Source of the DNA: Eledone cirrhosa
Lineage: Eukaryota
NCBI GenBank assembly: GCA_964016885.1
Contig: OZ024743.1
Span: 359,538,001 to 359,602,000 of the forward strand
Direction: 5' to 3'
DNA: 64,000 bases
The position numbers and the translations under genes were made by a program. The notes under the pieces were generated by a model. That model ran no database searches. It saw nothing but the letters and a program-made list of their open reading frames with translations, and was not told the DNA's origin. Shown here piece by piece: positions 20,256 to 57,618 of this stretch (the first letter of the stretch is position 1; each line of letters opens with the position of its first letter).

Positions 20256-20882
20256 CGGTGAATTGGCAGTATCGGTAGAGGTTTGGATGCCATGCTTTCC
20301 AGCATAGTTACGTCTCTTTACGGTCTGAATTCAAATCCCGTCGAGGTTAACTTTGCCTTTCATCCTTACGAGGTCGATAAAATAAAGTACCAGTAATGTA
20401 CTGGGTAATTGCTGGCCTTGTGCCAAAAGTAGAAACAATTAGTATTATTATATTGGCAGTATCGGTAGAGGGTCGGACGCCATGCTTTCCAGCATAGTTA
20501 CGTCCCTTTACGATCTGAGTTCAAATCCCGCCGATGTTGACTTTGCCTTTCATCCTTACGGGGTCGATAAAATAAAGTACCAGTAATGCACTGGGTAATT
20601 GCTGGTCTTGTGCCTAAAGTAGAAACAATTATTATATTATATTACATATTATTATATCTAGGGGCGGTGGATTGGCAGTATTGGTAGAGAGTCGGACACC
20701 ATGCTTTGAAGCATGGAGTTACAGCCCTTTATGATGTGAGTTGAAATCCCGCCAAGGTTAACTTTACCTTTCATCCTTATGGGGTCGATAAAATAAAGTA
20801 CCAGTAACGCACTGAGGTGGATTTAATCGACTTTCTCCTCCCCCTAAAATTGCTGGCCTTGTGCCTCAAGTAGAAATCATTA
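20256..20882 (+). mobile_element. Head-to-tail trio of Meta-like SINEs (20256-20440, 20452-20630, 20661-20882)
   Basis: Three direct copies separated by attatt/attat tails; the third is a longer variant. Confidence 0.9.
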
Positions 20883-21163
20883 TTACATTATAATAGCATC
20901 GACCATCATAAAAACATGCATGGATATTTCCAAATCCACGGAAATAGACATCAACATTTAAGAATTTATACTAAAGTAGTGGAGAAACAACCGAGGAAAA
21001 TATTCAGACTGAATAACAACAGACAACAATACTTCCATGAAATCGAAAATATCCATTAATATCCACGAAATAATGACAAAGAAAACCTTAAAAAAATGAA
21101 ATGATGAAGGATACATGTGTTTGTCTTGCTTTAATTTAGGGTATTCTTATTGAAATTTCATCA

Positions 21164-21678
21164 TCTATATATATAAAACTGAGCATGTCTGTCTGTGTGT
21201 GTGAGTTTGAATCCCTAAAACTAGAGGAGCACCCAAGCAACTGTTTTCAAACTTGACACATATAATACTTATGTTTCAGGGAGTGTCCTGAGCAAAAATA
21301 AAAATTTAAATTTTCAATGCCCTAGGGACCGCATTAGGCGATTTAGCGATCTCTCTCTATAATTCTTAGTCTTTCCCTTTTTAGATAGATAAATACATAT
21401 AACGTAGCGCCCTTATAATATCTGTCTGTATGTCTGGCTGTCTGCTGCCTTCGGTTATTCTGTCACCCTTGCTCAAGACAAATCTCACACTCATTCCCCA
21501 AACAGTTGGTTAGTGCACACAACTTCTTCCTCACGTTTTAAGCCACAGTGTTGCTAACTTACGTACCACCAGACCCTTACTTCTTTGCCAGACGTGGTTG
21601 TGGCAATACTAAGCTTAGCTAAGGCGGTTATATATTTCACAATACCTTATCCCGTGCAACGCCGGGTACCACTGCTAG
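21164..21678 (+). mobile_element. Non-autonomous Helitron (515 bp)
   Basis: A|TCTATATATATAAAACTG...; 3' hairpin CCCGtgcaacgcCGGG (21651-21666) followed by CTAG|T; no TSD. Confidence 0.9.
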
Positions 21679-22814
21679 TAAGTTATATAATGTTAATTTT
21701 GGCACGGATAACTGATCATCCAACACGTCTAAACATACAAAAGAAAAATCAACACAAGTCAAATTCATTCTAAAACAATACAATTGAGAATCGTACCATT
21801 TGGCTCCTGTATAAAAGGGAATTCATAAGTTGAAATTACTTCATAAGAAATACGAAAAATCGAACGCACAATATCAACAGAAACAAACAATTCGAAACAT
21901 GATAAAATGACGATAATGTAAATAAAGGGGTTGATTTTGCCCCTAAAGTTTCCCAAATAAAAAAGAAATTGTACAGACTAAAGATAGATATGATTGCATG
22001 CATCAAAATATGATACCTCCAAAACTGAATAAACGTATACTATCTGGAGAGAAAATAATCCTGACCTGAAAGTAGATTTGTGTCCTAACAGATCAGCTAT
22101 TGTAAGAACCTACATTATAAATAGCAAACGAATATCAGTCATAGAAATAGACCACTTGAGAGAAAGAATTCATAACGAAGATACAAACAACGTAACGAAA
22201 GGAAACAAAAACAGACAATAAGAATGAAAACATTGTGATTGGATAGAGTAGCACAAATACAACAAATACAATAAATACAATAAATACAGAAATGAACCGG
22301 ATCATACCCTCGCATGCCTGAAAAATACTGAACAGCAATAACTGACTCATGACTCATGCATACGAATGCGAATATCAATACCATCAATAGACAATACTGC
22401 AACCAGAAACGTCCCGAACAATATGAGACCTTCCTCAAATTATTGATAACGTACATCTAATCTCAACAATCAACGTAGAAAACAAACGTACAGAGAAAGA
22501 TAAATGAAAACAATCCATGAAATTAGAAAAAGACACCAATAATAATAATAATAACAATGCGTTCTTTATTAACCACAAGGGTTTACATAAAGCAGACATT
22601 AAGGACAGCGCAGGGTAATACAGGACGATACAAATGGGCATTTCTGCGTTTAAAAAAAAACTAAAACAGGATGTAACAAAAATAACAATGATAAATTCCC
22701 CACTAGGGGGGGGGGGGAGACTTCCGAGGGACATTTGTGGAGAAAGCCCATTAAAAGGCCACAGTGACCCTGACCACCAGGGCAAGTGCCCTCTCCCAGT
22801 TTTCCACCTTTAAT

Positions 22815-25800
22815 TTACAGACACATACTCAGAGTAGGCCCATTCACTCGGGCCATACTTGCCCCTCTCACCCATCTTTCAACAAAATGCTGGGAAGAGA
22901 GCAATTCCCTCGCTACCCTGATTTTCCTTTTCAAATGAAATTTGAAAAAGTTAATCAAGGCATCACCGAAAAGGTAAGTGCTCGTTTTCAGCCCTTTCAA
23001 ACGTGTCCACCATACTATCTCTTTCGACATGGCCACCAGACAGATAAAAACTTCCTGCCCTTCCGGCTAAAGGAAGAGGGCGGGGCAATCCTCACGATGG
23101 ACTCAGCTGATAGCCGGATCCGTCCTTCACGTGACAGCAGGTGTTCGACATAAACCCACAAGTCAGCAATGCTCGGACAGTGGACGAGTGCATGCAGGAC
23201 GGTTTCGTCGCCCTGCGCGCATCTCGGACATGCCCGGTTGACGGCACCTCCATGCCTGTAGAGTTTATCCCGAACTGGCAAAGCTCCTCGGTAGCACTGC
23301 CCGGCCAGGGATTTCTGGGAGTTGTCCATAGGCCCCGGCCGGAAAGTCCTTCCGAGAAGATTGGCTAGTTGATTTTCGTCGACGCCTAAAGTTTCTCCAA
23401 GTACGTCGTCGCTCTTCCACTCCACTAATCCTCTATAGAACGCCAAGGTGGAGTTTCCACCGATCACATTGCCCGATTGGTCGAGGGCTGTGAGCGCCTG
23501 AAGACATTCCAGTGTCCAATCCCTCTCGGTCTTCGCTTGACCCAGGACTGCAGCTCCGTCAAGGAGACGAACTGGGGAAAGACGCGTCTAGCAAACGGCG
23601 ACCACATCTGATCACCGTCGAGGAAGAGGTGGAGATGTCGTAGCCTGAGCGCGTGTCTGCGCATCATCAGCCACGGCATGCCCAGCCCTCCACGTAGCGG
23701 GTCTTGACTGCAGATGGACCGCCTGACCATCGGAGCGCGTCCCTTCCACAAAAAGCGAAAGAGCAAACGTTCCAGCGCAGTCAAGCGGGGCTTAGGACAA
23801 GGTACGACGGTCAGGCAGTAGTAGATGACGGACGCGATGTATGCGTTAGCCACCTCCGCTCGACCTTTCAGGGATAGCTTTCTCTCCGCCCATTTCTGGG
23901 TGAGAGAAGCCACCCTGCTCGTCACCTCGTCCCAGTTTTTGTCCGTCGGGAGGTCCGGACTGAACCAGACCCCTAGCAATTTAACCGGTCCGTCCGTCCA
24001 GCGCCCGACGACGCTGTTGGACGGCATGGACCTGCCTCTCCAGGTGCCGAGCTGCAGGCCCACTGACTTTTCCTGGTTGATCATTGCTCCTGTCACCGCT
24101 TCGTATTCTCTTAGTGTAGTGCCGATCGCCTCGATGTGTTTGGCGTTCGACATCGTCCGCATATGCTGACACGGATCTTCCGAATCCTAGTTCGTGCGGG
24201 ACCCCATTCAACGTCTCCAGTTTGTGCACTAATGGCTCGAGAGTCAATACGTACAAGAGGGACGAGAGGGGACATCCTTGGCGGACCGAGCGCATGATGT
24301 TGAACGGTTCCGAAAGGTGACCGTTCACTCTCACCACAGAGCAGATGTCGCTGTGCATGGCAGCGATCCAGCCTCTGAAAACGGGCCCAAAGTCAGCCGC
24401 CCTCAGGACTGCCGCTAGGTAACGATGGTCGACCCTATCGAAAGCTTTCGACTGATCTAAATTGATCATGGACCCACCCGTGTCAGGTTCCCTACCTACC
24501 CTCTCTACGATGTATCGTATGAGGTGGAGGTTGTCGTGGATGGATCTGTCAGGAATGGCGCATGTCTGTGCCTCACCCACCAGACTACCAACGAAAAGCG
24601 CCAACCTCTTTGCTAGCAGCCAAAATCTTGAACTGTGTGTTTACCAGAGTTATGGGCCTGAAAATATCTGTTATCCCCCTTGTTCTGATCCTTTCTCAGC
24701 AGCCCCACAGCTCCTCGGCTCACAGAGCTGGGAATTCTCCCGTTCAGTAGCAGTTGCCAGTTGCAGTAGACGCCCGCCAAGAGGCCTCCGAACAAGACTG
24801 GCATCTGTACGTAAAGTTCATAGGGCAGACCATCCAACGAGGCGATTTACAAGAGGCAAATCGCTTGGTTTGGATGGTCTGCAGCCAGTCATTGCTTCCC
24901 GTACTTCAGCGGCTGTTATCGGCTTTTCGCAACACTCCGCCTCAGTGGCCGAGAGCCGCGACAGTCCATCCCTCGATCGGGCCCGTGGCTTCCCCTGAAC
25001 AGCTGTAAGAAGTGTCGCTGGAAAGCTTCACACATTTTCCCGGGATCGAGTAGCATGCGCCCGTCGTGGTCCACCAAAGACCGGATCGTGGCTTTGTTGC
25101 TACGACGGGCCTCCGCGACTCGGGCCCATTGAACGGCTTTTGTCCCCTCGTGTCTGAGAGCACGCACCCTAGCTCTGACAACGCAGCCTTCGTGTTTTGC
25201 ATTGAAGAATTGGCCAAGGGCCAATTTCGCCGCAAGTACGTCGGTCGCGATGCCTTTGCTAAGCGCCTCGTCTAATTTTCTAACTAATTCTCCCTCTGCT
25301 CTATTTTTCTCTATTGCTAAGCCTTACTAAACCTAATGGACTCTATTCTAATTGCTCTTTTCAGAGCAAACCACCACTTGTTGTTGACGATGGCCCCCGT
25401 CAACGCCCGCTTAACTAGTTCGCTAATCCGGTCTCTGTAGGCCTTGCGCGCTAGTAAATACGCGTTTAGCTTCCAGTAGCCAGGTCCTCGTCTATGAAGC
25501 CTATCTAAGTCAAGCACACAGATCACGAATTTGTGGTCCGTGTAGCTGACTATCTTGAATTGTGGACAGCCTATGCTAGACCTATCTATTTCCCTACAAC
25601 ATACTCTATCTAGATATGATCTGGATGACCCTATGCGATTGTCCAAGTCCACATTGGCACATTCGGGAAATCCAATCGGTACCTGTCAGACGATTGAAAA
25701 CGCCTGAGCAGGTTTGTGAGACTCTTGCACCCTCCTTCCCTATCCACTAATCCCACACAGTCCCAGCGTGCATCTAAGATCCCGTTCCAGTCGCCCACTA

Positions 25801-26212
25801 ACGCTAAAGAGCGGGACGTTCCAAGAAAGGTCTCCAGACGCCGGAAGAAATCGGGCCGCCCTGTTCCTGTCGGGACATATACGGCCACTAACCTGAAAGC
25901 TTGCCCGTCTCCGCTGGTCACGTCCAGCACCACCAACTTACCTTCTGGGTCCAGGAAGATGGCCCGTATGGCAAGATCCAAACCTCTCCGAAAAAGCACA
26001 GCAACTCCTTCCCCCGATCCCGGTCGGCTGGGAGATGCGTACACATCATAGCCGGCGATGATCGGTGCGAAGGCCCGTGCTTCGGAGATTTTGGTCTCGC
26101 TGATGGCCACCACATCTATGTTTAGTGACCTGAGGTCGTTGAGCAGGTGGCCCTGATTCCACGACGACCCCAAGCCACGCGCATTTATGCTGCCTATTCT
26201 GAGTGAGGTCAT
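22815..26212 (-). pseudogene. Tx1-A ORF2 (AP endonuclease, reverse transcriptase, C-terminal CCHC), frameshifted
   Basis: SINARGL, AISET, GDWNG, TDH; DQSKAFDRVDH, VRQGCPLS, AYADDV; CPRCAQGDETVLHALVHC. Confidence 0.92.
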
Positions 26213-26246
26213 GTTGAAATGGAGTGGAAAAGATGGGAAAGACCAC

Positions 26247-28137
26247 TTACCTTACTTTTCGTAGAGAAGGACGGTTTCTGCATCCTTTTCACTGCCTGTG
26301 GCCTCCTCGGGAAGGATGTCCTTATAAATCCTTCTGGAGAGTGCTTGTCGAAGTCTCCGATGTCTTTGGGGAATTTTTGTTTTAGTGTCATGTACGTTTT
26401 CTGTGTGATGCGAGTGATTTGTATGTGTGGAGGTTGAGTGAACTTTTGGGTTGTTCTGTAGTCTTTTTCTGTGATGCTGGTGTTGTGTTGGATGTAGTGT
26501 AATAATTGGTTGTTGTTCAAATTTAATGCTGTGTAGTGTGAATCGTTTTGGTTATTTTGTTTTGTTTGCGTTTGTTGAGGGTTTGTTTCTGTTTCGCTTT
26601 TTGGTGACTTTTGTGGTGTTGGTGATGGTGGTGTTGGGGTTAATGATGGTGATAGTGTTGGTGTTTGTGGTGATGGGGTTGGTGATGCTGGTGTTGATGG
26701 TGGCATATCTGTCCTAACTTTTTTGTTTGATAGTTTATTTGTTTGCCTCTGTATTTTGTTTTGGAGGGGGAAGGAAGAGATTTTTTTCTTTTTTGGTTTC
26801 TTTTTTTCTTTTTTCCTGATACCGTTTCCCACTCCTCGTCGTCACAATCTCTTTCCAGTTGCGATAGGCCGGGCAGTGGAAAATCCTCCACAGGCTTTGG
26901 TTTTGTTTGTGGCGTGGTGGATGATGTAGGCGCTGGTGCTAGATCTGGCGCGTTGGGTGGTGGTGGTTTTGGTTTTGCTAATGTTGCTGCGGTTGTTGCT
27001 GTTACAGTTGCTTCTGTTGTTGCTGCTACAGTTGTTGCTGCCACCTCTGCTGCTGGTGGTGTTGATGGTTGAGTCACTGGGGTGGGTAAGAGAGCAGAAA
27101 GCCCATAGGTGGGTTCCTTCACCACAAACTACACACCTAGGCCTTCTGCCCTCGACGATTACGGTGAGGTGGCTGCCGTCAGTAAGGTCTATTACCGCTG
27201 GGATCTCCTCAATGCTTTTATGGTCCGCTTGGGTCAGGAGCTCCATCGCAGATCCGGACCAGTTCTCCTGCTTTTCATTCGCTATTTCGATCATCTTGGT
27301 GTTGGCCTCGATGCCGGCGAGGACGGCAGCCATTAGCCAGGGAATTTCGATGGCCGGTGGAACGTGGGTCACCCTGATCTTCACGAGTCTCTGGCCACAA
27401 TAGCTTGGGACGAGTGTGATGTCGTCACTTCTTAATGGGCCATGGAGTGTTCTCTGGCCTCCTGTGGTGTTTTAAAGAACACGTGCACGGTTCCATATTT
27501 CTGCCCACGTCTGATGTGGGTTTTGTTTGCCCACACATGTCCCAAAGCTTTTTGGATTTGGGACTCGGATGCCCGTTCCACTCGGTGCGATTTTATGTTA
27601 ATTGTCCGATAAGACACGGTGCATAGGCGACGATGCTCCATTTTATTAGGGTTGGGGGCTGACCCTGTACCCATCTTTCTTTACCATTCTTTTGGCTTCT
27701 TCTAATTCCTCCTGGGTTACCTGGATCGCTTCGCACGTTTTTGCTACTCTCGCAAATGATAGGGTAGTTTTCTTAATTTCATTGTTGTTGTTATCGTTAT
27801 TTTTGTTATTGTTAATTTAAGTTTCAGATTTGGTGGTGGTGGCGTCAGTGTTGTTCGGTGTGGAAGAGTTCATTTTGGTTGAATTCATTTCGATATCACG
27901 AGTTCATTTTTTTCCTTTTGTTTCTGTTGTCGCTGTGGTGGTTGTGGTGGTGGTGGGGGTGACGGCTTTAACACCTGCAGTCATTGGTAATGGCGGGAAA
28001 TGAATGTCTGCCTGAGACAAATTTAAAATATTGCTACTGCTTATATTTTTAGTGTTGGCAAACGTAGTAATATTTACAATGGTGGTGTCGGTGTGAGCTG
28101 TTAGTTTGTGAGGAAGGTGTGACTCTAGGTCGGCCAT
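26247..28137 (-). pseudogene. Tx1-A ORF1 (RRM-like region, CCHC knuckle, Pro/Thr-rich), frameshifted
   Basis: ORF pieces 27904-28137, 27432-27674, 26842-27384 (CVVCGEGTHLWAFC), 26640-27125, 26209-26832. Confidence 0.85.
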
Positions 28138-28586
28138 GATATTTCAAAGAAATTTGTTTGTTTGTTTGATAATTATAAAAAGTTTAAATTTTGGGCTCAA
28201 GGCCCCAATCCTTTTGAGTGACCTTTTCAGAAATCAATGTATGTGCACTTATATACAGGTAACAATAAAGATTTTCCATAAATGGCAATTTGAAACAACT
28301 GATAATAACAAACCTTTGCGGAGCTCACGATGATACGATTTACTACGTAGGGGTCGCCAATAATAATAATAATAATGATAATAATAATGATTTCATTTAT
28401 TGGCCACACGGGCCGACATATAGGGGACAATACAAAAGACTGGGACAGTGGGGTTTTACAGAAAAATCGAGTAAACAATATGAATCACAATAACAAAGTA
28501 ACAATAACAAAGTAACAATAAAGTAACAATAAAATTACAACAAGAAAAAAATTCCCCAATAGGGGGGATGACCACCTAGTGTTCAC

Positions 28587-31500
28587 TCAGGTACCCCACC
28601 AGTCCTGAACGACCCGACGCTTCGAGAGCACCCTGGAAGGGCACCCCTCTCCTAATTTACCTACATACAGCCGCCTGACCAGAGTAGACCCACTCACACG
28701 GGCCATTCTCGCCACATTCACACACCTTTCAGCAAATGTACTGGGGGGCAGCACTTCTCTCTCCACTCTCACCTTCCTTTCCAGGTGAAACTCGAAAAAG
28801 TTGATGAGGGATTGGCCGATGAGAAAAGTGTCTGTCTTCAGTCCTTTCAACCTCGTCCACCATGCAACCTCTTTCGCTACTGCCACCAGACAGAGGAAAA
28901 TTGCCTGCCCTTCCTGGCCAAAAGAAGGCGGCGGGTCGATCTTCACTATGACTCGGCCGATAGCCGGATCCGTTCTACACGCGACAACAGCTGTTCAACA
29001 TAACTCCACAAGTCAGTAATGCACGGACACTGGACGACTGCGTGCAGAACGGTTTCGTCGCTCTGCGCGCATCTCGGGCAGGTCCGTCTGACAGCACTTC
29101 CGTGCCAGTAGAGTTTATCTCGAACCGGCAGTGACCCCCGGTAGCACTGCTAAGCGAGAGATTTTTGGAAATTATCCATCGTCCCCGGCTCGAAAGTCCT
29201 CCGGTACAGACTGGTTAGTTCGACTTCGTTGACTCCTAGAGCCTCTCCGAGTGCGTCGTCGCACTTGCCCACCACTAATCCTTTATAGAACTCGAGAGTG
29301 GAAGTTCCACTGACCGCATTGCCCGCCTGGTAGAGGGCAGTGAGTGCCTGGAAACATTCCAGATGCCAGTCACCCAGTCTCGGTCTCTTCTTGACCCAGG
29401 ACTGCAGCTCAGTCAAAGAAACGAGCTGCGGAAAGGCCCGTTTGACAAACGGCGACCACACCTGTTCACCGTTTAGGCAGAATATCTGGAGATGCGGCAG
29501 CCTCAGCGCGTGCCTGCGCATCATTAGCCACGGCATGCCTAGCCCTCCAAGTAGAGGGTGGTGGAAGCAGATGGACCGCCTCACCAGCGGAACCTGACCC
29601 CTCCACAAGAATTTGAAGAGGAGCCGTTCCAAGATGGCGAGGCGCGAACGGGAGAAAGGGACGACAGTCAGACGGTAGTAGATGACGGACGCGATGTACG
29701 CTTTCGCCACTTCCGCCCGACCTTTCAGTGATAGCTTCATCCCAGCCCATTTCTTGGTGAGACTGGCTACCCTGCCCGTCACCTCGTCCCAATTCGTATC
29801 CACCTGGAGGTCTGGCCCGAACCAAACCCCTAAAAACTTTACCGGTCCGTCCGTCCAGCGCCTAACGACGCTGTTGGACGGCATGGACTTGCCTCTCCAG
29901 GTGCCGAGTTGCAAGCACACTGACTTTTCCGGGTTAAGTTTTGCTCCCGTCAACCTTTTACATTCCTCCAATAAGTTGCCGCCCACCTCGATTTCTGAGG
30001 TGTCCGACACCATCACGGTGATGTCGTCCGCATAAGCCGACACAACCTTTCCGCGTCCCGGTTCGAGCGGGATGCCCTGCAACAGCTCCAGCTTCCGCAG
30101 TAAAGGCTTGAGAGTCAATACGTACAGAAGGGAGGAGAGAGGGAACCCTTAACGGACCAATCGGGAGACCTGAAACGGTTCCGAGAGGTGGCCATTAATT
30201 TTGACCATCGAGCAGGTGCCGCTCTGCATTGCAGCGATCCAGCTTCTGAAGACGGGGCCGAAGCCAGCCGCCTTGAGGACAGCCTCTAGGTAGCGATGGT
30301 CGACCCTCTCGAATGCTTTCGATTGATCTAAATTGATCAGAGCCCCAGCGAAGCCAGGTTTACACCCTACCCTCTCTATGATGTATTGCATTAGGTGGAG
30401 GTTTTCGTGTATGGACCTGGTTGGGATTGCGCAAGTTTGTGCCTCCCCAAACAAATCCCCGACGACAAGCGCCAACATCTTCACTAACACCCTTGCCAAA
30501 ATCTTAAAATCTGTGTTGAGCAGAGTTAAATGCCTGAAATTGTCTAATGTGTCCCTCTTGTTCTCGTATTTCCTTATCAGCGTCACTACGCCCCGGCTCA
30601 CAGAACTGGGAATACTCCCGTTTTGCTGCCAGTTGCAGTAGAGGGCTTCGAGGAGATTGGAGAACAAGTCTGGCATATTTACGTAAAGCTCGTAGGGCAG
30701 ACCATACAAACCGGTGACTTGCGCCTCATGCAGCCAACAAGGGCATCCTGAATCTCGGCTGAAGTAATTGGCCTTTCGCAGCGCCCAGCGTCAGCCGTCC
30801 AGAGTTGCGGCAAGCCATCCAGGTAGGGACTGAAGTCCGCCACCATCTCTGACCCGCCACCTCCCCCGAACAACCGAGCAAAATGTTGGCGAAAGGCCTC
30901 ACACATCCTCTTGGAATCGCTCAGCTCGTGCCCGTCTCGGTCCGTCAAAGACCGAATCGTGGTTTTATTACCACGCTGCGCCTCTGCCACGCGGGCCCTT
31001 CGAACAGCTTTGGTTCCCTCGTTTCTCAGAGCACGCGCCTTAGCTCTGACAATGCAACCTTCGTGTTTCGCATTGAAGAAATGGTCTAATGCCATTCTCG
31101 CCGCTGGCACGTCAATTGCAATACCACTACCAATAGCCTCGTCTAACTTATCTACCAACTCCCCCTCCTTTCTATTTTTCTCTAACGCTACTTCTTTGCT
31201 AAACTCTATCGACATTACTCTAATCTCTCTTTTGAGAGCCCCCCCCCCCTATTTTTGACGACTCCCCCTGTCAACATTTTCTTAATTAAATTGTTGACCT
31301 GATCCCTGTAAGCCTTACGTGCCGGAAATGACATGTTTAGCTTCCAGTAACCAGGTCCTAACCTACGCGTCTTATCTAGGTCGCCCACACAGATCACAAA
31401 CTTGTGATCTGAATAGGCGACCGTTTCAAAACGTGGACAGCTTACACTATTTCTGTCTATTTTCCTAATGAATATCCTGTCTATATACGATCTAGATGAC

Positions 31501-32083
31501 TCTATGCGGTTAGCCCAGGTCCATACTGGCGCATTAAGGAAATCTAGTCGGTACCTGTCAGACAGTTGGAACTGGCTGATCAGGTTCTTGAGGCTTTTGC
31601 ACCCCCGCTCCAATCGGATACTCCCACACAGTCCCAGCGTGCGTCTAATATGCCGTTCCAGTCCCCCGCTAACAGTAAAAGCCGAGACGTAGCCAGAAAG
31701 GCTTCCAGGCGTCTAAAGAAGTCCGGCCGTCCTACCCCAGTAGGAGCATAGACGGCCACCAGTCTAAAGGCACCGCCTTCGTTATTGTTCACGTCCAGGA
31801 CCACCAACTTCCCGTCCGGGTCCCGGAAGATCGACCTTACCTCGAGATCCAGGCCTTTCCTAAACAGCACTTCCACCCCGCCTCCCATTCCCGGCCGGCT
31901 AACAGATGCAAAGATCTGATAGTCGTCGTAAATGGGGGCTAGTGCGCGCGTGTCGGAAATCCTGGTCTTGCTGACTGGAATTACATCCATTTCTATAGAC
32001 CTGAGGTCGTTGAGCAGGTGACCCTGCTTCCAGGACGATCCTAGGCCTCGAACATTTAAACATCCTACTCTAAATACAGCCAT
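28587..32083 (-). pseudogene. Tx1-B ORF2 (APE-RT-CCHC), frameshifted
   Basis: CLNVRGL, GDWNG, YSDH, DQSKAFERVDH, SAYADDI. Confidence 0.92.
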
Positions 32084-32114
32084 GTTGGCAGGTTAAACAG
32101 AGAGAGAGGAAGGT

Positions 32115-34110
32115 TTACTTACCTTCCGGGCTCTTGTGAAGGTCGGGTTGTTCGACCTCCATAGTTGGTGGGCTTTCTTTTGGGAACCCCTTTAAAAGTC
32201 TTGAAGTTGGTTTTACGTTCGGGGTTCCCACGTCCCGAGGAAAGCTGTCTCGTATTTCTTTGTATAATTCGATCGACATTCGCACCAGAACCAAATCTTC
32301 CGGCACGCGAAATGTGCTCGATTTAAAAATTTCCCCCTCTTTTCGTATATTTTCACTTCGTGCTACGAGGGCCATCAGTTCCTTGTTGGCCCTCCTGACG
32401 AGCACGAAGTTTTGTATGTTTTGTTGGTGTGATTTTATTTGTTTGCGTGGCTGTGGCGGTGATGGTTTTGGTGGTGTTGTTTCGGTTGTATCTGTGTTTG
32501 TTATAAGTGCGGTGTCTGCGGTTTCAGATGTTAGTGTGTATATTTGTTCTTGCGTCTGTTTAGGTTGTTTGCGTTTGGGGGATGTTTGGGGGATTCTGGT
32601 GATGGTGATGGTGGTGTTGATGTTGGTGTTATTGGAGAGATGTTTGCGTGGGTGGTGTCTGCGTTTTTTATTGTGGGTGATTTTGTGCTTTGTTGAGTTT
32701 TCTTTTTCTTTTTGTGTTTCCTTTTTTGTATTTTGGGGGATTTTTGTTTTCCCTCATCTTCACTACTCGTAGATGAGGGGTCTGTGTCTGTAAGTGTGTC
32801 TGTATGTATGTTTATGGTTTTATTGGTGTGTGTATTTTGGGGTGGAGGGGGAATTTGACAGCTTTTCTCGTTTCCCCTCTGGGTGGTCAATGTTGGTGGT
32901 GGTCTTTCTATTGGTGTTGTTGTTGGTGGTTTTGCCGGTGCTGGTGTTGGTTGTGGTCCTCGCCCCGGCGTCGGCAGCAGTGGAACCTTTCGACCCCTTG
33001 CCTCTCTCAGCAGTTGAGGGCAGAAGGCTCGCAAATGGGTTTTTTCCCCACAAACAAAACACTGCGGCCTTTTGCCTTCGGTCATAATGTGAATGACCGT
33101 CACATTTTGAAGACGGATGTGGTCCGGGATTGTCTTCACATTCTCGGGCCTGATCTGGAGAAGGATCTCCAGGTTAACCCCGGACCAGTCCTCTCTGGCC
33201 GTTCTGGTCACTTCTATAGGGATGGTATCCGTCCCCTCCACAATCACACAACCCAGAATCCACCACATGTCAAGTCCTGGTGGGATTCTGGGAATGCGTA
33301 GACGGGTTGTTCTTTTTCCCATGTGGGAGGGGTACATTATGACCTTGCTGGTTTTGCATGGAATCATAGCGTGTTTCATAGCGAGGGCTTCTGACTTGAA
33401 CAACACCGAAATGGTGCCGTACTGTCTGCCCCTCTCTATGTATTCGGTGTTTTCTTTGATGCACCTCAGCGCGACTTCGAATTCTTCTTGTGGGATTAAA
33501 GCTGCCCTTTTGGTTTGTGCTGAGATGCATCTATAATGCACCGTTCTGCGTTCCACTGCCTCAATAGCTTCTACCGGGACAGTTAAGTTGGCCCAGGTTT
33601 GCTCTTGCTTGATGAGCTTCCATGCCTGGGCCGACTTTTCAGCTTTGTTTGAGAGGTCCATGTTGAAGCATGGCCTCTTTTTTGCTGCTTGCTGCTGACG
33701 CAGCGAAAGTGTTCTTTTTGTTTTCATTGGGGGTGTTGTTGTCGTTGTTCTTGTTGGTGTTGTTGTTAGCACTGCGCTGTTATCATTGTTGTTTTTGTTG
33801 CCACCGTTGTTCTCGGTGCAGTTGCTCTTGTTGCTGTTGGTGTTGTCGCTATTTGTTTTCATCTTAGTGGTGTTGATATTGTTGTTGCATTTGTTATTTT
33901 TTTTTGTTATCTGTATTTTCGTTGTCGCTGTTACTGTCATTTTTTTTCAAAATTAGAGTTCTCATTGGTATCATTGGTGTCTTTGTTTACATTGTTTGTG
34001 GTGGTGTTTGTGTTATCAATTTGTGTTAATTTCGCTGTAGCGCTCCTCACAACTTCTACGTCGTTGTCGCACGACGGCAGACATATCGCTGGGTGGCGTG
34101 GCTCAGCCAT
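32115..34110 (-). pseudogene. Tx1-B ORF1, frameshifted
   Basis: ORFs 33937-34155, 32531-33940 (RGRQYGT, CFVCGEKTHLRAFC) and 32115-32405. Confidence 0.85.
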
Positions 34111-34340
34111 GTTTTTTTTTCTCCGTAAATTTTTTAACATGTAAAAAAAGTTCAAATATTTGGGCCAAAGGGCCCAAATATTATACTTACCCCTTCACAG
34201 TGCAAAGTCTAAGGGCTTATATCCCTTACACAACAAGAAATATTTAACAACAAATAATGTTAACAGGCAAATAAAGCGACTTACTGGGAGCGAGCCAAAA
34301 AGACGTCCGAACAGACCAATAATAGTAATAATAATAATAA

Positions 34341-36949: not shown

Positions 36950-36975
36950 ACAATAATAATAATAATAATAATAAT

Positions 36976-40658: not shown

Positions 40659-41146
40659 TATCTCTCATTCTTTCGGTTACGACAAAATAAAGTACTAATC
40701 CATGGCGGTAAAGAGGTGGATGTATTAGAGCGTCCCGCAAGATAATGTTGGTATCAATTCCATTTGGAATCCGAATTCTGCACAGGGATTAACATTCTAC
40801 AAATGACCAGTGCCAATATCTCGACTATGGACCACAACTGGTTGTGAAAGCTATAATGACTGACGGAAGATAGTGGCCGTATGCTACTACAGTTGAATGA
40901 TGGCGATGACGATGAAAGTTTAAGTAGCAATGACGTAGATGACGATGCAAGATTTTGAGGATATATTTAACCAATTTTTAAATTGTTTTAATTATTGATA
41001 ATATATCTAATTGCTGAAAGTAATTCATTCTTTAGGCAAATAAATGTTAGGCCAATATAAATCCTCGGGTTGTTAGCAGTTGTGCCCAACTCAGTTTCAT
41101 TGCAATCGTATCACACTACATAACGATATTAGGTACTTTTCATTAT

Positions 41147-41314
41147 AATTGTTTCTACATTTGGCACAAGGCCAGTATATTACTGGTACTTTATTTTATC
41201 GACCCCGTAAGGATGAAAGGCAAAGTTAACCTAGGATAGATTTGAACTCAGAACGTAAAGGGACGTAACTATGCTAGAAAGCATGGCGTCCAACCCTCTA
41301 CCGATACTGCCAAT
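41147..41314 (-). mobile_element. Meta-like SINE
   Basis: Same family as 10702-10889. Confidence 0.9.
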
Positions 41315-43745: not shown

Positions 43746-43936
43746 GGGCAGTGGATTGGCAGTATCGGTAAAGGGTCGGACGCCATGCTTTCCATCATAG
43801 AGTTACGTCCCTTTACGGACTGAGTTCAAATTCCACCGAGGTTAACTTTGCCTTTCATCCTTCCGGGGTTGATAAAATAAAGTACCAGTAATGCACTGGG
43901 ATAATTGGTGGCCTTGTGCCAAAAGTAGAAACAATT
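43746..43936 (+). mobile_element. Meta-like SINE, full length
   Basis: gggcagtggattggcagtatcgg...ccttgtgccaaaagtagaaacaatt; aattatatat on both flanks. Confidence 0.9.
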
Positions 43937-44039
43937 ATATATCAAATAACTGTGTCGATAAATATACTCAAACAATAGATACAATCTTCACACATGTTGT
44001 AAACCCCCCAGCTTCATAGCTCGAGGTACACCCAAGCCT

Positions 44040-48272: not shown

Positions 48273-51200
48273 TCAGCGAGACCAGAATCTTCGAAGCACG
48301 AGCCTTCGCACCGATCTTCGGTGACTACGATGTATACGCATCTCCCAGCCGTCCAGGGGGAGGGGGGAGGGGACTTGCTGTGATTTTTCGGAGAGGCTTG
48401 GATCTCGTAATACGGGCCATCTTCCTGGACCAAGAAGGTAAGTCAGTGGTGCTGGACGTGACCGGCAGCGAAGGCAACGCTTTCAGGCTAGTAACCGTCT
48501 ACACCCCAACAGGAGTATGACGATCAGATTTCTTCAGACGTCTAGAGACCTTTGTGGGAACGTCCCGCTCTTTAGTTTTAGTGGGTGCCTGGAACGGTAT
48601 CTTAGTAGCACACTGGGATTATGTGGGGCTAGTAAATAAGGGAGGAGGATGTAAAAGCCTCACTAACCTGCTCAGACGTTTGCAACTGTCTGACAGGTAT
48701 CGATTGGATTATCCGAATGTGCCGATGTGGACATGGGCAAACCGCAGCGGGTCATCCAGATCGTATCTAGATAGGATATTCTGTAGGGAAACAGATAAGG
48801 TTATCGTAGGTTGTCCACAATTAAAAGTAGTCGACTACATGCCCCACGAATTGTGATCTGTGAAGTCGACTTAGATAAACTTCATAGGCAAGGACCCGGT
48901 TATGGAAGCTGAACGCGTCTTTCCCGTCGCGCAAATCTTACAGAGACCGGATAAGCGAATTAGTTAAGCGTGCGTTGACGGCTGCGATCGCCAACAACAG
49001 ATGGTGGTTCGCCCTGAAAAGGTCTATTAGCGTAGAAGGAGAGCAAGTTAGAAAGCTAGAAGAGACGTTTAGGACAGGCATCGCAACCGACGTGCTTGTG
49101 GCGAGATTGGCACTCGACGAATTCTTCAACGCAAAGCACGAAGGCTGCGTTGTCAGAGCTAGAGCGCGTACTCTGAGACACAAGAGGACAAAAGCTGTCC
49201 AATGGGCCCGGGTGGTGGAGGCGCGACGTGGCAACAAAGCAACAATTCAATCTTTGCCTGACCAAAACAGGCGCATGTTACTCGAAATCGAGCAGACGTG
49301 TGATGCTTTTCAGCAGCACTATGCTTAATTGTTCCGGAGCGGCGGCGGCGGGATCGGAGTATGAACTTCAGTGCAATCCTCGAGGGACTGCCGCAGCGCA
49401 GTATTGCGAGAAGCTGATAACAGCAGGTGAAATACAGGAAGCGATGTCTGAGTGCACGAGGGATAAATCGCCAGGTTTGGATAGTCTGCCCTTCGTGCTT
49501 TATGCGTACATGCCAAACTTGTTGGATGACATCTTGGCAGATGTCTACTGCAACTGGCAGCAAAACGTGAGAATTCTCAGTTTTATGATGGTGCTGTTAA
49601 GAAAAGACCAGAAAAAGGGGGACGTTATAGACAATTTCAGCCCATAACTTTGTTAAACGCAGAGTTCAAGATTTTGGCCAAGGTGTTAGCAACAACATGG
49701 CGCTTGTCATCGGTGATCTGGTGGGAGAGGCGCAGACATGCGCCATCCCAGACAGATCCATCCACGACAACCTCCTTCTCATGCGATACATCATAGAGAG
49801 GTTGGTTAAGGGCCCTGATCAACTTGGATCAATCTAAGGCATTTGATAGAGTCAACCATCGAGGCGGCCGGTTTCGGGCCCTTTTGCAGAGGTTTGATTG
49901 CTGCCATGCACAGCAACATCTGCTCAGTTGTGAAGGTGAACAGTTATCGGTCACAGCCGTTCAACACCATGCGTCGCTCTTGTAAGTATTTACCCTAGAG
50001 CCTTTACTGCACAAATTGGAAGCGATGAGAGGCGTCCCACGCGAACTGGAATGTGGGAGTCCGTATCGGCTTACGCCGGCGATGTCAGGCACCGGACATG
50101 TCCAAATGTTCGGCACCGCTCTCAACGAATACGAAGCAATGACAGGAGCAACGGTGGGCTTGCAGCTCGTCACCTGGAGAGGCAATTCTATGTCGCCCGA
50201 CAGCGTAGTGGGGCGCTGGACGAAAGGACCGGTTAAATAGCTCGGAGTCTGGTTCGGTTTGGACCTCCAGATGGAGAAAACTGGATCGACGTCACGAGCA
50301 GAGTGGCCTCTCTCACCCAGAAACGGGCCGAGAGGTAGCTGTCCTTGAAAGTTGGGTCGGAAGTGGCGAATGCGTTCATCGCATCCGTCATCTGCTACCG
50401 CCTAACCGTTGTGCCTTTCCCCGGCCCAACTCTGACAAAAATAGAGCGCGTCCTCTTCCGCTTTTTATGGAAGGGACGTGCTCCCATGGTCAGACGTTCC
50501 ATCTGCTGCCAACACCCGTTGCGTGGAGGACTGGGCATGGCGTGGCTGATGATGCGCAAACATGCGCTGAGGCTGCGACATCTCTGGTGCTTCCTTGACT
50601 GTGAACAGGTGTGGTCGCCGCTTGCCAGACGTGTTTTTCCCAGCTCGTCTCACTAACGGAGCTGCAGTCCTGGATCAGGAAAAGACTGAGGGATAGCGCT
50701 TGGAAGCTGGAATGTCTCCAAGCGCTCACAGCCTTCTACTAGCTGGGCACTAGTATCGGTGGAACATCCACCTCGGCGTTCTATAGAGTACTAGTGGAGG
50801 GGAAGAGTGACGACGTTCTCAGCGAGACCCTGGGCGTCGAAGACGATCAGCTTTTCACTCTCTTCAAGAGAACTTTCAGCCCGGGGCCTATGGACAACTT
50901 CCAGAAATCCCTGGCCTGGCAGTGCTACCGGGGCGCGTTGCCGGTTCGAGATAAGCTCTACAGTCACGGCCGAGCCGTCAGCTGAACCTGTCCAAGATGC
51001 GCACAGGGTGAGGAAACCATTGTGCATGCACTCGTTCAGTGTCCGAGCATTGCTGACTCGTGGAGCTATGTCGAACATTTGCTGTCACGTGTAGGACGGA
51101 TCCGGTTAACGACTGAGTCCATTGTGCAGATAGTCCCGCCGTCCTCCTTTAAGGAGTGGAAGGGCAAGCAGTCTTCATCTGCCTGGTGGCCATGGCGAAA

Positions 51201-51664
51201 GAGATTGTGTGGTGGACAAGGTTGAAAGGATTGAAGACGGACACTTTCCTCTTCGGCGAATCCCTGATTAACTTTTTTAAATTTCACTTGAAGAGGAAAA
51301 TCAGGGTGGAGAGGCAAGTGCTGTCTTCTAGTAAGTTTGTTGAAAGGTGGGTGAAAGTGGTGTCTGGTCCGAGTGAACGGACCCGCTCTGAGTATGTGCC
51401 TGTAGATAGAGGAGTGGGAAAACTGGGAGATGGCGCTTGATCTGGTGGTCAGGGTGGCCGTGGTCTTTTGTGTGGTTTTCGACACGAGTGACCCTCGGAG
51501 TATTCCTCCCTTTTGGAGAATTTTGGTTGTTTGAATTTTTTAATTTGCTTTTACACATTTCTTTCTTGTTATAACCATTTTACACGGCCCAAACCCAACT
51601 TTTTATCGTACTGCTCCGTTCTGTACCGTCTGTAATTTTAGCCCTTGTGGCCAATAGAGAAAAC
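48273..51664 (+). mobile_element. Tx1-like family C, 5'-truncated within APE, more decayed
   Basis: ORF2 fragments homologous to Tx1-A; distinct 3' UTR ending gcccttgtggccaatagagaaaac|att. Confidence 0.9.
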
Positions 51665-51904
51665 ATTATTATTATTACTATTATTATTGGCGACCTACGT
51701 AGTAAATCGTATCATCGTGAGCTCCGCAAAGGTTTGTTATTTTCAGTTGTTTAAAATTGCCATTTATGGAAACTTTTTATTGTTAACTGTATATAAGTGC
51801 ACATACATTGATTTCTGAAAAGAACACTCAAAAAGATTGGGGCATTGAGCCCAAGATTTAAACTTTTTATAATTATCAAACAAAAAAAATTTCTTTTAAA
51901 AATC

Positions 51905-53886
51905 ATGGCCGACTCAAATTCACACCCCTCACAAACTAACACCTCACACCCACACCACCGTTGTGATATTACTACATTTGCCAACATTAAAAATATAAGC
52001 AGTAGCAATATTTTAAATTTGTCTCAGGCAGACATTCATTTCCCGCCATTACCAATAACTGCAGGTGTTAAAGCCGTCACCCCCACCACCACCACCACCA
52101 CAGCGACAACAGAAACAAAAGAAAAAAAAATTAACTCGTGACATCGAAATGAATTCAACCAAAATGAACTCTTCCACACCGAACACCACTGACGCCACCA
52201 CCACCACAACTGAAACTAAAATTAACAATAACAAAAATAATGATAACAACAACAGCAGCAATGAAATTAAGAAAACTACCTTGTCTTTTGCAAGAGTAGC
52301 AAAAACATGCGAAAGCGATCCAGGTAACTCAGGAGGAATTAGAAGAAGGCCAAAAGAATGGTAAAGAAAGATGGGTACAGGGTCAGCAGCCCCCCCCCAC
52401 ACACACACCTAATAAAATGGAGCATCGTCGCCTATGCACTGTGTCTTATCGGACAATTAACATAAAATCGCACCGAGTAGAACGGGCATCCGAGTCCCAA
52501 ATCCAAAAAGCTTTGGGACATGTGTGGGCAAAAAAACCCACATCAGACGTGGGCAGAAATATGGAACCGTGGACGTGTTGTTTGAAACACCACAGGAGGC
52601 CAGAGAACACTCCTTGGCCCCATTAAGAAGGAACGACTTCACACTCGTCCCAAGCTATTGTGGCCAGAGACTCGTGAAGATCAGGGTGACCCACGTTCCA
52701 CCGGCCATCGAAATTCCCTGGCTAATGGCTGCCGTTCTCGCCGGCATCGAGGCCAACACCAAGATAATCGAAATAGCGAAAGAAAACCAGGAGAATTGGT
52801 CCGGATCTGGGATGGAGCTCCTGATCCAAGCGGACCATAAAAGCATTGAGAAGGTCCCAGAGATAATAGACCTCACTGACGGCAACCACCTCACAGTAAT
52901 CGTCGAGGGAAGAAGGCCTAGGTGTGTCGTTTGTGGTGAAGGAACCCACCTATGGGCTTTCTGCCCTCAGGCTAAAAGGTTGAGGCCACCTCTCTTACCC
53001 ACCCCAGTGATTCAACCCACCTAAGGGCTTTCTGTCCTCAGGCTAAAAGGTTGAGGCAACATCTCTTACTCACCCCAGTGACCCAACCATCAACACCACC
53101 AGCAGCAAAGATGGCAGCAACAACTGTAGCAGCAACAACAGAAGCAACTGTAACAGCAACAACCCCAGCAACAGTAGCAAAACCAATACCACCACCACCC
53201 AACGCGCCAGAACTAGAACCAGCGCCTACATCATCCACTACACCACAACCAAAACCAACGCCTGTGGAGAATGTTCCACTCCCCGGCCTATCACAACTGG
53301 AGACAGATTGTGACGACGACGAGTGGGAACGGTATCAGGAAAAAAGAAAAAAAGAAACAAAAAAAGAAAAAATTCTCTTCCCTCCCCCTCCAAAAAGAAA
53401 ATACATAGGGTAACAAATAAACTATCAAACAAAAAAGTTAGGGCAGATATGCCACCATCCACACCAGCATCACCAACCCCATCACTACAAACACCAACAC
53501 CACCATCACCAACACCACAAAAGTCACCAAAAAGCGAAACAGAAATAGACCCACAACAAACGCAAACAAAACAAAACAACCAAAACGAAACACACTACAC
53601 AGCATTACATTTGAATAACAACCAATTATTACACTACATCCAACACAACACCAGCATCACAGAAAAAGACTACACAACAAGCCAAAAGTTCACACCACCT
53701 CCACACATACAAATCATTCGCATCACACAGAAAACATACATGACACTAAAACAAAAATTCCCCCAAAACATCGGAGACTTCCGACAAGCACTCTCCAGGA
53801 GGATTTATAAGGACATCCTTCCTGAGGAGGCCACAAGCAGTGAAAAGGATGGAGAAACCGTCCTTCCTCTACGAGAAGTAAGGTAA
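51905..53886 (+). pseudogene. Tx1-A copy 2 ORF1, frameshifted, with ~70-bp internal tandem duplication near 52953-53095
   Basis: MADSNSHP...; CVVCGEGTHLWAFC; ends PLREVR*. Confidence 0.85.
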
Positions 53887-53920
53887 GTGGTCTTTCCCAT
53901 CTTTTCCACTCCATTTCAAC

Positions 53921-56900
53921 ATGGCCTCACTCAGAATAGGCAGCATAAATGCGCGTGGTTTGGGGCCGTCATCGAAGCAGGGCCATCTGCTCAACGACTT
54001 CAGGTGACTAAACATAGATGTAGTGGCCATCAGCGAGACCAGAATCTCCGAAGCACGGGCCTTCGCACCGATCTACGGCGGCTACAATGTGTACGCATCT
54101 CCTAGCCGTCCGGGATCGGGGGGTGTAGTTGCTGTGCTTTTTCGGAGAGTTTTGGATCTCGCCATACGGGCCATCTTCCTGGACCCAGAAGGTAAGTTGG
54201 TGGTGCTGGACGTGACCAGCAGAGACGGGCAAACTTTCAGGCTAGTGGCCGTCTATGCCCCGACAGGAACAGGGCGGCCTGATTTCTTCGGGCGTCTGGA
54301 GACCTTTCTTGGAACGTCCCGCTCTTTAGTGTTAGTGGGCGACTGGAACGGGATCTTCGATGCAGGCTGGGACTATGTGGGATTAGCGGATAGAGGAGGA
54401 GGGTGCAAGAGCCTCACCAACCTGCTCAGGCGTTTTGAACTGTCTGACAGGTACCGATTGGCTTTGCCGAATGTGCCAATGTGGACTTGGTCAAATCGCA
54501 TAGGGTCATCCGGATCATAGCTAGATAGAGTATTTTGTAGGGAAATAGATAGGTCTAGCATAGGCTGTCCACAATTCAAGATAGTCAGCTACACAGACCA
54601 CAAATTCGTGATCTGTGTGCTTGACTTAGATAGGCTTCATAGACGAGGAAGGACCCGGCTACTGGAAGCTAAACGCGTCCTTACCAGCGCGCAAGGCATA
54701 CATAGACCGGATTAGCGAACTAGTTAAGTGGGCGTTGACGGGGGCCATCGTCAACAACAAGTGGTGGTTTGCTTTGAAAAAGGCGATTAGAATAGAGTCC
54801 ATTAGGTTTAGTAAGGCTTTAGCAATAGAGAAAAATAGAGCAGAGGGAGAACTAGTTAGAAAATTAGGCGAGGCGCTTAACAAAGGCATCGCGACCGACG
54901 TACTTGCAGCGAAATTGGCCCTTGACCAATTCTTCAATGCAAAGCACGAAGGCTACGTTGTCAGAGCTAGGGTGCGTGCTCTCAGACACGAGGGGACGAA
55001 AGCCGTTCAATGGGCCCGAGTGACGGAGGCGCGTCGTGGCAACAAAGCCACGATCCGGTCTTTGGTGGACGGGCGCATGCTACTCGATCCCGGGCAAATG
55101 TGTGAAGCTTTTCAGCGACACTTCGTTCAGCTGTTCGGGGGCAGCGGTGGGCCGGGTCGAGGGATGGACTTTAGTGTCTACCTCGACGGACTGCCGCGGC
55201 TCTCGGCCACTGAGGCGGAGTGTTGCGAAAAGCCGATAACAGCCGCTGAAGTACAGGAGGCAATGACTGGCTGCACAAGGGGTAAATCGCCTGGTTTGGA
55301 AGGTCTGCCCTATGAACTTTACGTACAGATGCCAGACTTGTTCGGAGGCCTCTTGGCGGACGTCTACTGCAACTGGCAACAGAACGGGAGAATTCCCAGC
55401 TCTGTGAGCCGAGGAGCGGTGGCGCTGCTGAGAAAGGATCCGAACAAGGGGGATAACATAGATAATTTTAGGTCCATAACCCCGCTAAACACAGAGTTCA
55501 AGATTTTGGCCAAGGTGCTAGCAAAGAGGTTGGCGCTTGTCGTTGGTGGTCTGGTGGGAGAGGCACAGACATGCGCCATTCCCGACAGATCCATCCACGA
55601 CAACCTCCACCTCATGCGATACATCGTAGAGAGGGTAGCTAGGGAACCTGGCACGGGTGGGTCTTTGATCAATTTAGATCAATCGAAAGCCTTCGATAGG
55701 GTCGACCATCGTTACCTAGCGGCAGTGCTGAGGGCGGCTGGCTTTGGGCCCGTCTTCAGAGGCTGGATCGCTGCCTTGCACAGCGACATCTGCTCTGTGG
55801 TGAGAGTGAACGGTCACCTTTTGGAACCGTTCAACATCATGCGCTCAGTCCGTCAAGGATGTCCCCTCTCGTCCCTCTTGTACGTATTGATTCGCGAGCC
55901 ATTACTGCACAAACTGGAGACGTTGAGGGGCGTCCCGCGCGAACTAGGATGCGGAAGATCCGCGTCAGCATAAGCGGACGATGTCACCGTAGTGGTGTCG
56001 AACGCCAAACACATCTAGGCGAGTGGCACTACACTAAGAGAATACGAAGCGGTGACAGGAGCAATGATCAACCAGGAAAAGTCAGTGGGCCTGCAGTTCG
56101 GCAGCCGGAGAGGCAGGTCCATGCCGTCCAATAGCGTCGTCGGACGCTGGACGCACCGGTTAAATTGATAGGGGTCTGGTTCGGTCCGGACCTCCAGACG
56201 GAAAAAAACTGGGACGAGGTGACTAGCAGGGTGGCTTCTCTTACCCAGAAATAGGCGGAAACGAAGCTATCCCTGAAAGGTCAAGCGGAGGTGGCTAACG
56301 CGTACATCGCGTCTGTCATCTGCTACCGCCTGACCGTCGTACCTCGTCCTAAGCCCCGCCTGACTGCGCTGGCGCGATTGCTCTTTCGCTTTTTGTGGAA
56401 GGGACGCGCTCCGATGGTCAGGTTGTCCATCTGCTGTCAACACCCGCTACGTGGAGGGTTGGCCATGCCGTGGCTGATGATGCGCAGACGCGCGCTCAGG
56501 TTACGATATCTCCACCTCTTCCTCGACGGTGATCAGGTGTGGTCGCCGTTTGCTAGACACGTATTTCCCCAGCTCGTTTCCTTGACGGAGTTGCAGTCCT
56601 GGGTCAAGCCAAGACCGAGTAGGAGCGCCTGGAGACTGGAATGTCTTCAGGCGCTCACAGCCCTCGACCAATCGGGCAATGTGATCGGTGGAAACTCCAC
56701 CTCGGCGTTCTATAGAGGATTAGTGGAGGGGAAGAGCGACGACGTACTTGGAGAAACTCTAGGCGGCGACGAAAATCAACTAGCCAATCTCTTCGGAAGA
56801 ACTTTCGGGCCGGGGCTATGGACAACTTCCAGAAATCTCTGGCCTGGCAGTGCTACCGAGGAGCCTTGCCATTTCGGGATATACTCTACAGGCATGGAGG

Positions 56901-57333
56901 TGCCGTCAGCCGGGCATGTCCGAGATGCGCGCAGGGCGACCAAAACGTCCTGCACGCACTTATCCAGTGTCCGAAAATTGCTGACTTGTGGGTTTATGTC
57001 GAACACCTGCTGTGGCGTGTAGGACGGATCCGGCTATGATCTGAATCCATCGTGAGGATTGCTCGGCCCTCTTCCTTTAGCCGGGAAGGGTAGGCAGTTT
57101 TTATCTGTCTGGTGGCCATGGTGAAAGAGATAGTATGGTGGACACGTTTGAAAGGGCTGAAGACGAGCACTTACCTCTTCGGTGATTCCCTGATTGACTT
57201 TTTCAAATTTCATTTGAAAAGGAAAATCAGAGTAGAGAGGGAAGTGCACGCTTCCCAGCATTTTGTTAAAAGATGGGTGAGAGAAGCAAGAATGGCCTGA
57301 GTGAATGGGCCTACTCTGAGTATGTATCTGTAA
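53921..57333 (+). pseudogene. Tx1-A copy 2 ORF2 (APE-RT-CCHC); YADD disrupted by a TAA stop at 55971-55973
   Basis: ORFs 54023-54520, 54735-55973, 56291-57022, 56818-57039, 57112-57300. Confidence 0.92.
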
Positions 57334-57618
57334 ATTAAAGGTGGAAAACTGGGAGCGCACTTGCCTTGGTGGTCAGGGTCACTGTGGCCTTTTACTGGGC
57401 TTTCTCCACAAATGTCCCTCCGAGGTCTCCCCCCTATTGGAGAATTTTTCATTGTTATTTTTTTGTTACATCCGCTGTTTTTGTTTTTTACACCCAGAAA
57501 TGCCCATTTGTACCGTCCTGTATTGTCCTGCACTGTCCTTAATGTCTACTTTATGTAAACCCTTGTGGTTAATAAAGAAATCATTATTATCATTATTATT
57601 ATTATTATTATTATTATT

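Follow-up and report, generated by a model that had tools for sequence, protein, structure and literature searches.

The window analysed here is a 64,000-nucleotide (nt) stretch of Eledone cirrhosa DNA (assembly GCA_964016885.1, contig OZ024743.1, positions 359,538,001 to 359,602,000 of the forward strand). It holds ten copies of one short interspersed element (SINE) and six pieces of four related Tx1-like long interspersed element (LINE) families, A to D. The SINE and these LINEs end in the same small predicted hairpin, and the SINE is probably mobilised by a stringent Tx1 sub-lineage that shares it. A Tx1/SINE partnership had been put forward in an earlier, sequence-only reading of the window. 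Stem covariation, target-site evidence and independent relatives outside the window support that partnership, but not the choice of families A to D as the ones that mobilise the SINE.

A shared 3′ end

The sequence-only reading described the common end as a bipartite motif, CCTTGTG and AGAAA set eight bases apart. The ends it quoted are present in the SINE (20857-20881), Tx1-A (57561-57585), Tx1-C (51643, plus strand), Tx1-D (37799, minus strand) and Tx1-B (28411, minus strand). As it had also observed, neither SINE nor Tx1 ends carry poly(A), and all continue into ATT. Scanning the window for CCTTGTG-N8-AGAAA with up to two mismatches returned 19 matches against 6.38 expected, a count that 0 of 100 shuffles reached. 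All 14 matches with at most one mismatch are 3′ ends of the SINE or of a Tx1-like LINE; ten are exact (eight SINE, two Tx1) and four have one mismatch (one SINE, three Tx1). The five two-mismatch matches are one SINE fragment and four unrelated sites. The spacing, said to be identical throughout, is eight bases in families A, C and D but nine in B, which the scan therefore missed and which was located separately. The copy at 22580 ends in AGAAC, and AGAAA stands in 93-99.9% of external contigs and reads. In the LINEs the spacer includes AATAAA-like bases, perfect in three of the six copies.

In CCTTGTG the first C pairs with the last G to close a loop of five bases (mostly CUUGU), and the bases on either side form a stem. 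The stem arms are AACC/GGTT in family A, GGCC/GGCC in B, AGCC/GGCC in C, AATC/GGTT in D and TGGC/GCCA in the SINE. Across 16 copies 89% of stem cells are paired and three of the four pairs vary on both sides; slid controls reach at most 59%. Taking one row per family, 14 of 15 cells are paired, with 4 of 120 permutations equal or better, and adding two outside families gives 19 of 21 cells, with 16 of 5040 permutations as good. The conserved stem-loop with compensatory changes that marks a stringent SINE/LINE pair is present, though its folding energy is weak. The likeness exceeds chance through its terminal position, its strand, its recurrence in four families and the covariation of the stem. 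To judge from these alignments, the shared signal is better described as a stem-loop than as a linear motif; the bipartite signal with fixed spacing gives way to a hairpin whose stem letters covary, the spacing differing between families.

The SINE and Tx1-like copies, with hairpin coordinates for the LINEs and for the long SINE copy, are as follows.

10701..11136, minus strand: SINE copies S1, S2 and S3, a head-to-tail array; S1 has a 15-bp target-site duplication beginning ATTAT
19314..19504, minus strand: SINE copy S4, with a perfect 19-bp target-site duplication beginning ATTAT
20256..20635, plus strand: SINE copies S5 and S6, short-tail form, head-to-tail with S7
20662..20884, plus strand: SINE copy S7, long-tail form, with transfer RNA (tRNA)-like head, body, 30-nt C-rich segment, hairpin (20854-20866), AGAAATC and ATT
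41144..41314, minus strand: SINE copy S8
43746..43937, plus strand: SINE copy S9, with a target-site duplication of about 15 bp beginning ATTAT
62467..62518, minus strand: SINE copy S10, a 3′ fragment with decayed tail
51689..57618, plus strand: family A copy A1, Tx1-like, full length, open reading frames (ORFs) broken; 3′ hairpin 57558-57570; ATT repeats at both ends
22538..28358, minus strand: family A copy A2, Tx1-like, full length; 3′ hairpin 22571-22583; ATT repeats at both ends
28359..34317, minus strand: family B, Tx1-like, full length; 3′ hairpin 28402-28414; ATT repeats at both ends
48273..51688, plus strand: family C, Tx1-like, 5′-truncated; 3′ hairpin 51640-51652; closest match to the SINE tail in the window
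37781..38270, minus strand: family D, Tx1-like 3′ fragment; hairpin 37790-37802
36952..37120, minus strand: 3′ fragment of family A within a Dong/R4-like element, flanked on both sides by ATT repeats

Specificity within the window

To score this likeness we used a matrix built from the SINE ends alone, with the ATT tail excluded. The true 3′ end ranks first in A1, C, D and the family A fragment, fifth in A2 and eleventh in B. With the reverse matrix, built from the four Tx1 families, nine of the ten SINE ends fall among the top 37 of 127,956 positions. Gapped alignment to the SINE tail scores family C most strongly (0 of 20,000 null frames) and B next. The ends of the Dong/R4-like, RTE-like and second SINE-like elements of the window score at null level against the same tail. 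A Dong/R4 partner for the SINE was considered and set aside: the sense strand of those elements ends in AAT and the SINE in ATT, and the tail scores are null. A shared 3′ terminal sequence, as a stringent pair should have, is found; it is short and individually sub-significant by BLAST.

Relatives outside the window

A genome-contig search supplied 51 loci from tandem arrays, all in one assembly filed as a bacterial metagenome-assembled genome (MAG), whose array-bearing DNA is most likely misbinned DNA of an animal host. Their reverse transcriptase (RT) is 45% identical to that of A1, and they form one clade with the window elements (support 1.0). The hairpin is present in all 47 assessable loci, 4 of the 51 being excluded as too short. 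It reads GGC-CT(T/C/A)GT-GCC and lies about 640-730 nt past ORF2 and 17-21 nt upstream of AATAAA; downstream of it, likeness between the outside subfamilies stops at the AATAAA end. It is also the top SINE-matrix site in 45 of the 47 loci. A C-rich run and an A-run precede the hairpin, as they do in S7, and the S7 tail finds its best match at the hairpin site in eight of nine array loci tried. When the whole SINE (236 nt) was run blind by BLASTN against the 4.5-Mb assembly, tail-to-hairpin matches were the top 34 of 40 (E 0.5-0.9), with 27 of 34 bases identical. The relatives also have a second hairpin. Because they keep the shared hairpin while lacking both the AGAAA spacing and the ATT tail, the hairpin, not the spacing, is the lineage-wide feature, and the earlier idea of AGAAA at a fixed distance as a general signal does not hold. 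The stretch matched by the long SINE tail is longer in the outside relatives than in families A to D; the donor, and perhaps the working partner, may therefore be a family absent from the window.

The arrays occupy 16 contigs of the MAG-labelled assembly and consist of apparently intact Tx1-like elements placed head-to-tail in units of 6.4-6.8 kb. No spacer, poly(A) or target is visible between units, and their 5′ parts differ.

As distant controls we used 80 L1/Tx1 loci at about 30% identity from a metagenome scan, and the hairpin motif occurs in none of them. Their recognisable ends are AATAAA plus poly(A), a statement that covers a set in which ORF2 ends were located in fewer than half of the 80 loci. 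Some poly(A) ends of Tx1-like controls adjoin what we take to be U2 small nuclear RNA (snRNA) or 5S ribosomal RNA (rRNA) gene sequence; Keno- and Mutsu-type elements are known for such targets. No LINE relative appeared among viral contigs, and the SINE body pattern was unmatched in viral and genome contigs.

Identity of the elements

The earlier count of ten SINE copies stands, S10 being merely a 3′ fragment. The other copies are about 185-225 nt long, and depth over S7 is very high in all four sequencing runs; the element is short, non-coding, interspersed and in high copy number, as befits a SINE. It had been called tRNA/Meta-type. For the first half of that label there is a tRNA-like head with A and B box-like motifs recognised by eye, ARAGORN and Rfam giving no tRNA; the second half is unsupported. 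By-eye comparison with the bivalve MetaSINE rows in the supplement of PMC4824008 shows no likeness, and three SINE body motifs had 0 matches in the searched part of that supplement. The 66-bp Meta domain expected directly after the tRNA head is absent by comparison with the bivalve rows, a comparison that did not extend to SepiaSINE2 or the Meta consensus. The portion of PMC4824008 covered names no partner LINE for MetaSINEs. The 30-nt C-rich segment of S7 (20815-20847) is missing from the other nine copies, and external contigs show several different deletions across it.

Families A to D are read as Tx1-like members of the L1/Tx1 group from the domains of the predicted ORF2: Pfam matches to Exo_endo_phos (an apurinic-type endonuclease), RVT_1 and zf-RVT, with a C-terminal CCHC in A1, A2, B and C. 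The best PDB match of the Tx1-like ORF2 is human L1 ORF2p. Likeness among families A, B and C is 73-75% over their coding region. A CCHC zinc knuckle in ORF1, a feature of the Tx1 clade, occurs in A1, A2, B and the array relatives. The RT tree, whose root is insecure and which was built without Repbase references, groups the window elements in a separate clade (support 1.0) next to elements flanked by apparent U2 or 5S gene sequence and a coral protein named TX1 (34%).

Families A and B have a further hairpin at a matching site in the 5′ untranslated region (UTR), about 50 nt upstream of ORF1: 28190-28207 (minus strand), 51840-51857 (plus strand) and 34155-34182 (minus strand). The last, in family B, is a 12-bp hairpin. 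That of A2 resembles the SINE tail and outscores every 3′ end with the SINE matrix, and a chance site equals it in the gapped scan; that of A1 has a gapped score of 21. The array relatives hold no counterpart of this 5′ UTR hairpin sequence.

Targets and activity

Both the SINE and the Tx1-like elements lie at ATT. Clear target-site duplications accompany three of the ten SINE copies, and all begin ATTAT: a perfect one of 19 bp at S4, one of 15 bp at S1 and one of 15 bp, gapped, at S9. Duplication length could be read for the SINE only, at 15-19 bp in these three. ATT repeats flank four of the six Tx1 pieces on both sides, and the remaining two have short ATT at the 5′ junction, so that the preference for a target sequence that is common, though not universal, in the Tx1 clade is seen here as ATT. 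The sequence past the SINE 3′ end is TTATTATT in three organisms (1004, 1117 and 135 records; agreement about 0.4). ATT serves at least in part as target, not just as tail. Head-to-tail SINE joints occur in three of the four sequencing runs. Mean identity is 89% among the SINE copies and 93% between A1 and A2; the ages would overlap roughly, which is compatible with overlapping activity.

Weighing the partnership

Several observations weigh against a Tx1 partnership for the SINE. The shared stretch is short and the linear likeness modest: when the non-SINE part of the window is scanned with gaps, a chance site inside Tx1-B equals the score of the Tx1-C end (33), so that sequence alone would not carry the claim. 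In gapped alignment against SINE copy S1, the ends of A and D are at or near null. The families are kin, so the permutation figures (4 of 120 and 16 of 5040) overstate independence. On folding, the closing-pair probability exceeds 0.6 in only three of ten SINE and four of six Tx1 copies, and the fourth stem pair is missing in six of ten SINE copies. The 47 outside loci overlap and come from a single assembly with about two families; only three of nine array loci outscore the best of 86 control loci with the S7 tail, and BLAST E-values of the SINE tail against these relatives are 0.17-0.9. The relatives also lack an ATT tail. Target evidence is uneven, the SINE duplications being suggestive in S2, S6 and S7 and absent from S3, S5, S8 and S10, while those of the Tx1 elements are unreadable inside ATT repeats. 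The LINE comparison covers the element types of the window, with CR1, L2 and other clades of the genome outside it. Families A to D are candidate mobilisers, and the partner family may lie outside the window.

Among the alternatives, the one that fares best also derives the tail from this Tx1 lineage but has the hairpin serve RNA 3′-end processing or stability, a relaxed ORF2p accepting any RNA whose AUU end can pair with the nicked target. The LINE hairpin does always stand just upstream of an AATAAA-like signal, it is thermodynamically weak, and the stem binding of human L1 ORF2p is largely independent of sequence (PMC10830416, in part). Yet the SINE has no AATAAA and still keeps loop and stem in nine of ten copies, and the loop sequence is conserved across 45% RT identity where the remaining 3′ UTR is not. 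We consider this explanation unlikely.

We rate as improbable a second possibility, that the present partner is a LINE of another clade absent from the window (CR1, L2, RTE or similar) and that the Tx1-like tail is a relic or a convergent short hairpin. Most known pairs do come from CR1, RTE and L2, with no Tx1 among the 58 pairs of Table 1 in PMC3747384. Chance sites attain the same gapped score as the Tx1-C end, and within this genome the SINE-tail comparison covered the window. Against this, the hairpin, AGAAACA and ATT are the only SINE sequence that another LINE could recognise. None of the three other element types in the window matches the tail, while matching ends are seen in six related families.

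A third explanation, very improbable and already largely refuted, treats the motif as a shared landing site or chance likeness; window SINEs and LINEs do insert into one another's tails, but the motif terminates every copy, 5′-truncated ones included, the duplicated target starts after it, it is missing from 5′ junctions and its stem letters are family-specific.

A model for SINE mobilisation

If a stringent Tx1 sub-lineage does mobilise the SINE, the SINE would have acquired its tail from the 3′ terminus of a LINE in this lineage. ORF2p would bind the stem and read the C-U-Y-G-U loop, by analogy with zebrafish L2 (PMC4176376, in part); anchoring on the stem has a further analogy in human L1 ORF2p (PMC10830416, in part). 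The endonuclease would nick the AAT strand of ATT-rich DNA, and the AUU end of the RNA would pair with the nick and start copying. Because priming would use the AUU end, no poly(A) would be inserted, and since each insertion would leave a new ATT site, head-to-tail SINE and LINE arrays would result. The AATAAA-like spacer bases of the LINEs may be the cleavage signal for RNA polymerase II, dispensable for a SINE made by RNA polymerase III.

The closest published parallels, as given in the covered portions of the sources, are monocot L1 lineage 1a (LINE1-1_ZM) with ZmSINE2 and ZmSINE3 and Chlamydomonas L1-1_CR with SINEX-3_CR (PMC3472496, PMC3747384), in which a terminal hairpin with fixed loop and variable, compensating stem is shared with SINEs. 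Those pairs, however, belong to plants and algae and share about 50-80 nt; here an animal Tx1-like lineage shares 13-35 nt, with another loop, an ATT end and ATT targeting. In the crocodilian SINEU/Tx1-Mar case (PMC4494074, in part), mobilisation by Tx1 was likewise proposed, from target preference, and SINE insertions are tandem. Unlike our SINE, with its shared hairpin and lack of poly(A), SINEU carries snRNA heads and ends in poly(A), and according to that portion of the paper no LINE with a matching 3′ terminus was found. The L2 pairs UnaL2/UnaSINE of eel and ZfL2-1/ZfL2-2 of zebrafish also combine a stem-loop with a short terminal repeat, the stem being bound generally and the loop specifically; they belong to a different clade and were shown by assay, whereas the window pair is inferred from sequence (PMC4176376, in part). 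Insertion into simple repeats is known for Kibi (TC)n, Koshi (TTC)n and Dong (TAA)n, and the Dong-like elements of the window lie in (AAT)n as described. The Tx1 targets described in the covered parts of PMC4494074 and PMC3812793 do not include ATT; in the window, Tx1-like and Dong-like elements share the ATT/AAT repeat on opposite strands and are nested in one another.

Tail sharing is well known for L2, CR1 and RTE, and the covered portion of PMC3747384 states the L1 group as the exception, with over 800 families and just three SINEs that have an L1 tail, all of them plant or algal. Full-text literature searches gave no case in which a Tx1 element and a SINE share a tail; entries in Repbase, Dfam and SINEBase lay outside that scope and may already name the SINE or its partner. 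Matches to "TX1" in the searched part of PMC4176376 are mutant names, not Tx1 elements. If the Tx1 partnership is correct, it would identify what drives a very abundant SINE and account for ATT-centred clusters of nested LINEs and SINEs. More tentatively, a widespread animal Tx1 sub-lineage may be stringent, recognising a conserved C-[CUYGU]-G hairpin rather than poly(A) and, in this genome, driving one of its most abundant SINEs; we find this plausible but would not yet call it probable. On that reading, the pair would be the first in animals to share tails within the L1/Tx1 group, and the suggestion that stringent recognition is the ancestral state of the group would come to include animals. 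A stringent animal L1/Tx1 lineage with a 13-nt hairpin would offer a direct comparison with relaxed human L1, and the apparently intact natural copies in the outside arrays make the shift from stringent to poly(A) recognition testable.

Other elements of the window

The Tx1-like LINEs run head-to-tail, those of the minus strand as D, B, A2 and those of the plus strand as C, A1. The ATT linkers hold two families of R2/R4-like LINEs, which lie on the strand opposite to the Tx1-like elements and end in (AAT)n. On their motifs, we take both to be Dong-like.

34345..37780, plus strand: Dong/R4-like LINE copy E2, opposite in strand to Tx1-D and Tx1-B and lying in the ATT linker that separates them; (AAT)n end, no hairpin; negative control
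58403..62400, minus strand: Dong/R4-like LINE copy E1; (AAT)n end, no hairpin; negative control
57619..58340, minus strand: 3′ part of a second Dong/R4-like family, at a tail-to-tail junction with Tx1-A1

The Dong/R4-like and Tx1-like LINEs share the ATT/AAT repeat on opposite strands and are nested tail-to-tail (34320-37780, 57590-58435, 63348-63430); the dense LINE cluster would follow from such nesting in the same repeat. Of 17 ATT or AAT runs in the window, 13 touch a LINE end, as assigned by eye. The insert in E2 is bracketed by a 164-bp direct duplication (36677-36840 and 37123-37286), far longer than a usual target-site duplication. Beside Dong-like tails, a piece of 60-68 bp is present twice (58342-58409 and 63285-63351), its orientation to the repeat differing, and is possibly the 5′ end of another element.

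An old, decayed RT-like fragment at 13150-14250 (minus strand), presumably RTE-like, has an end unlike the SINE tail. A second SINE-like family, which we take to be CORE-like, lies at 8273-8472 and 48051-48270 and has a different tail without the hairpin. Other high-copy repeats appear as depth peaks in the sequencing runs at 21172-21475 and 21628-21703. The repeat mix of the window is similar to that published for Octopus vulgaris in the covered portions of PMC13282606 and PMC8967140.

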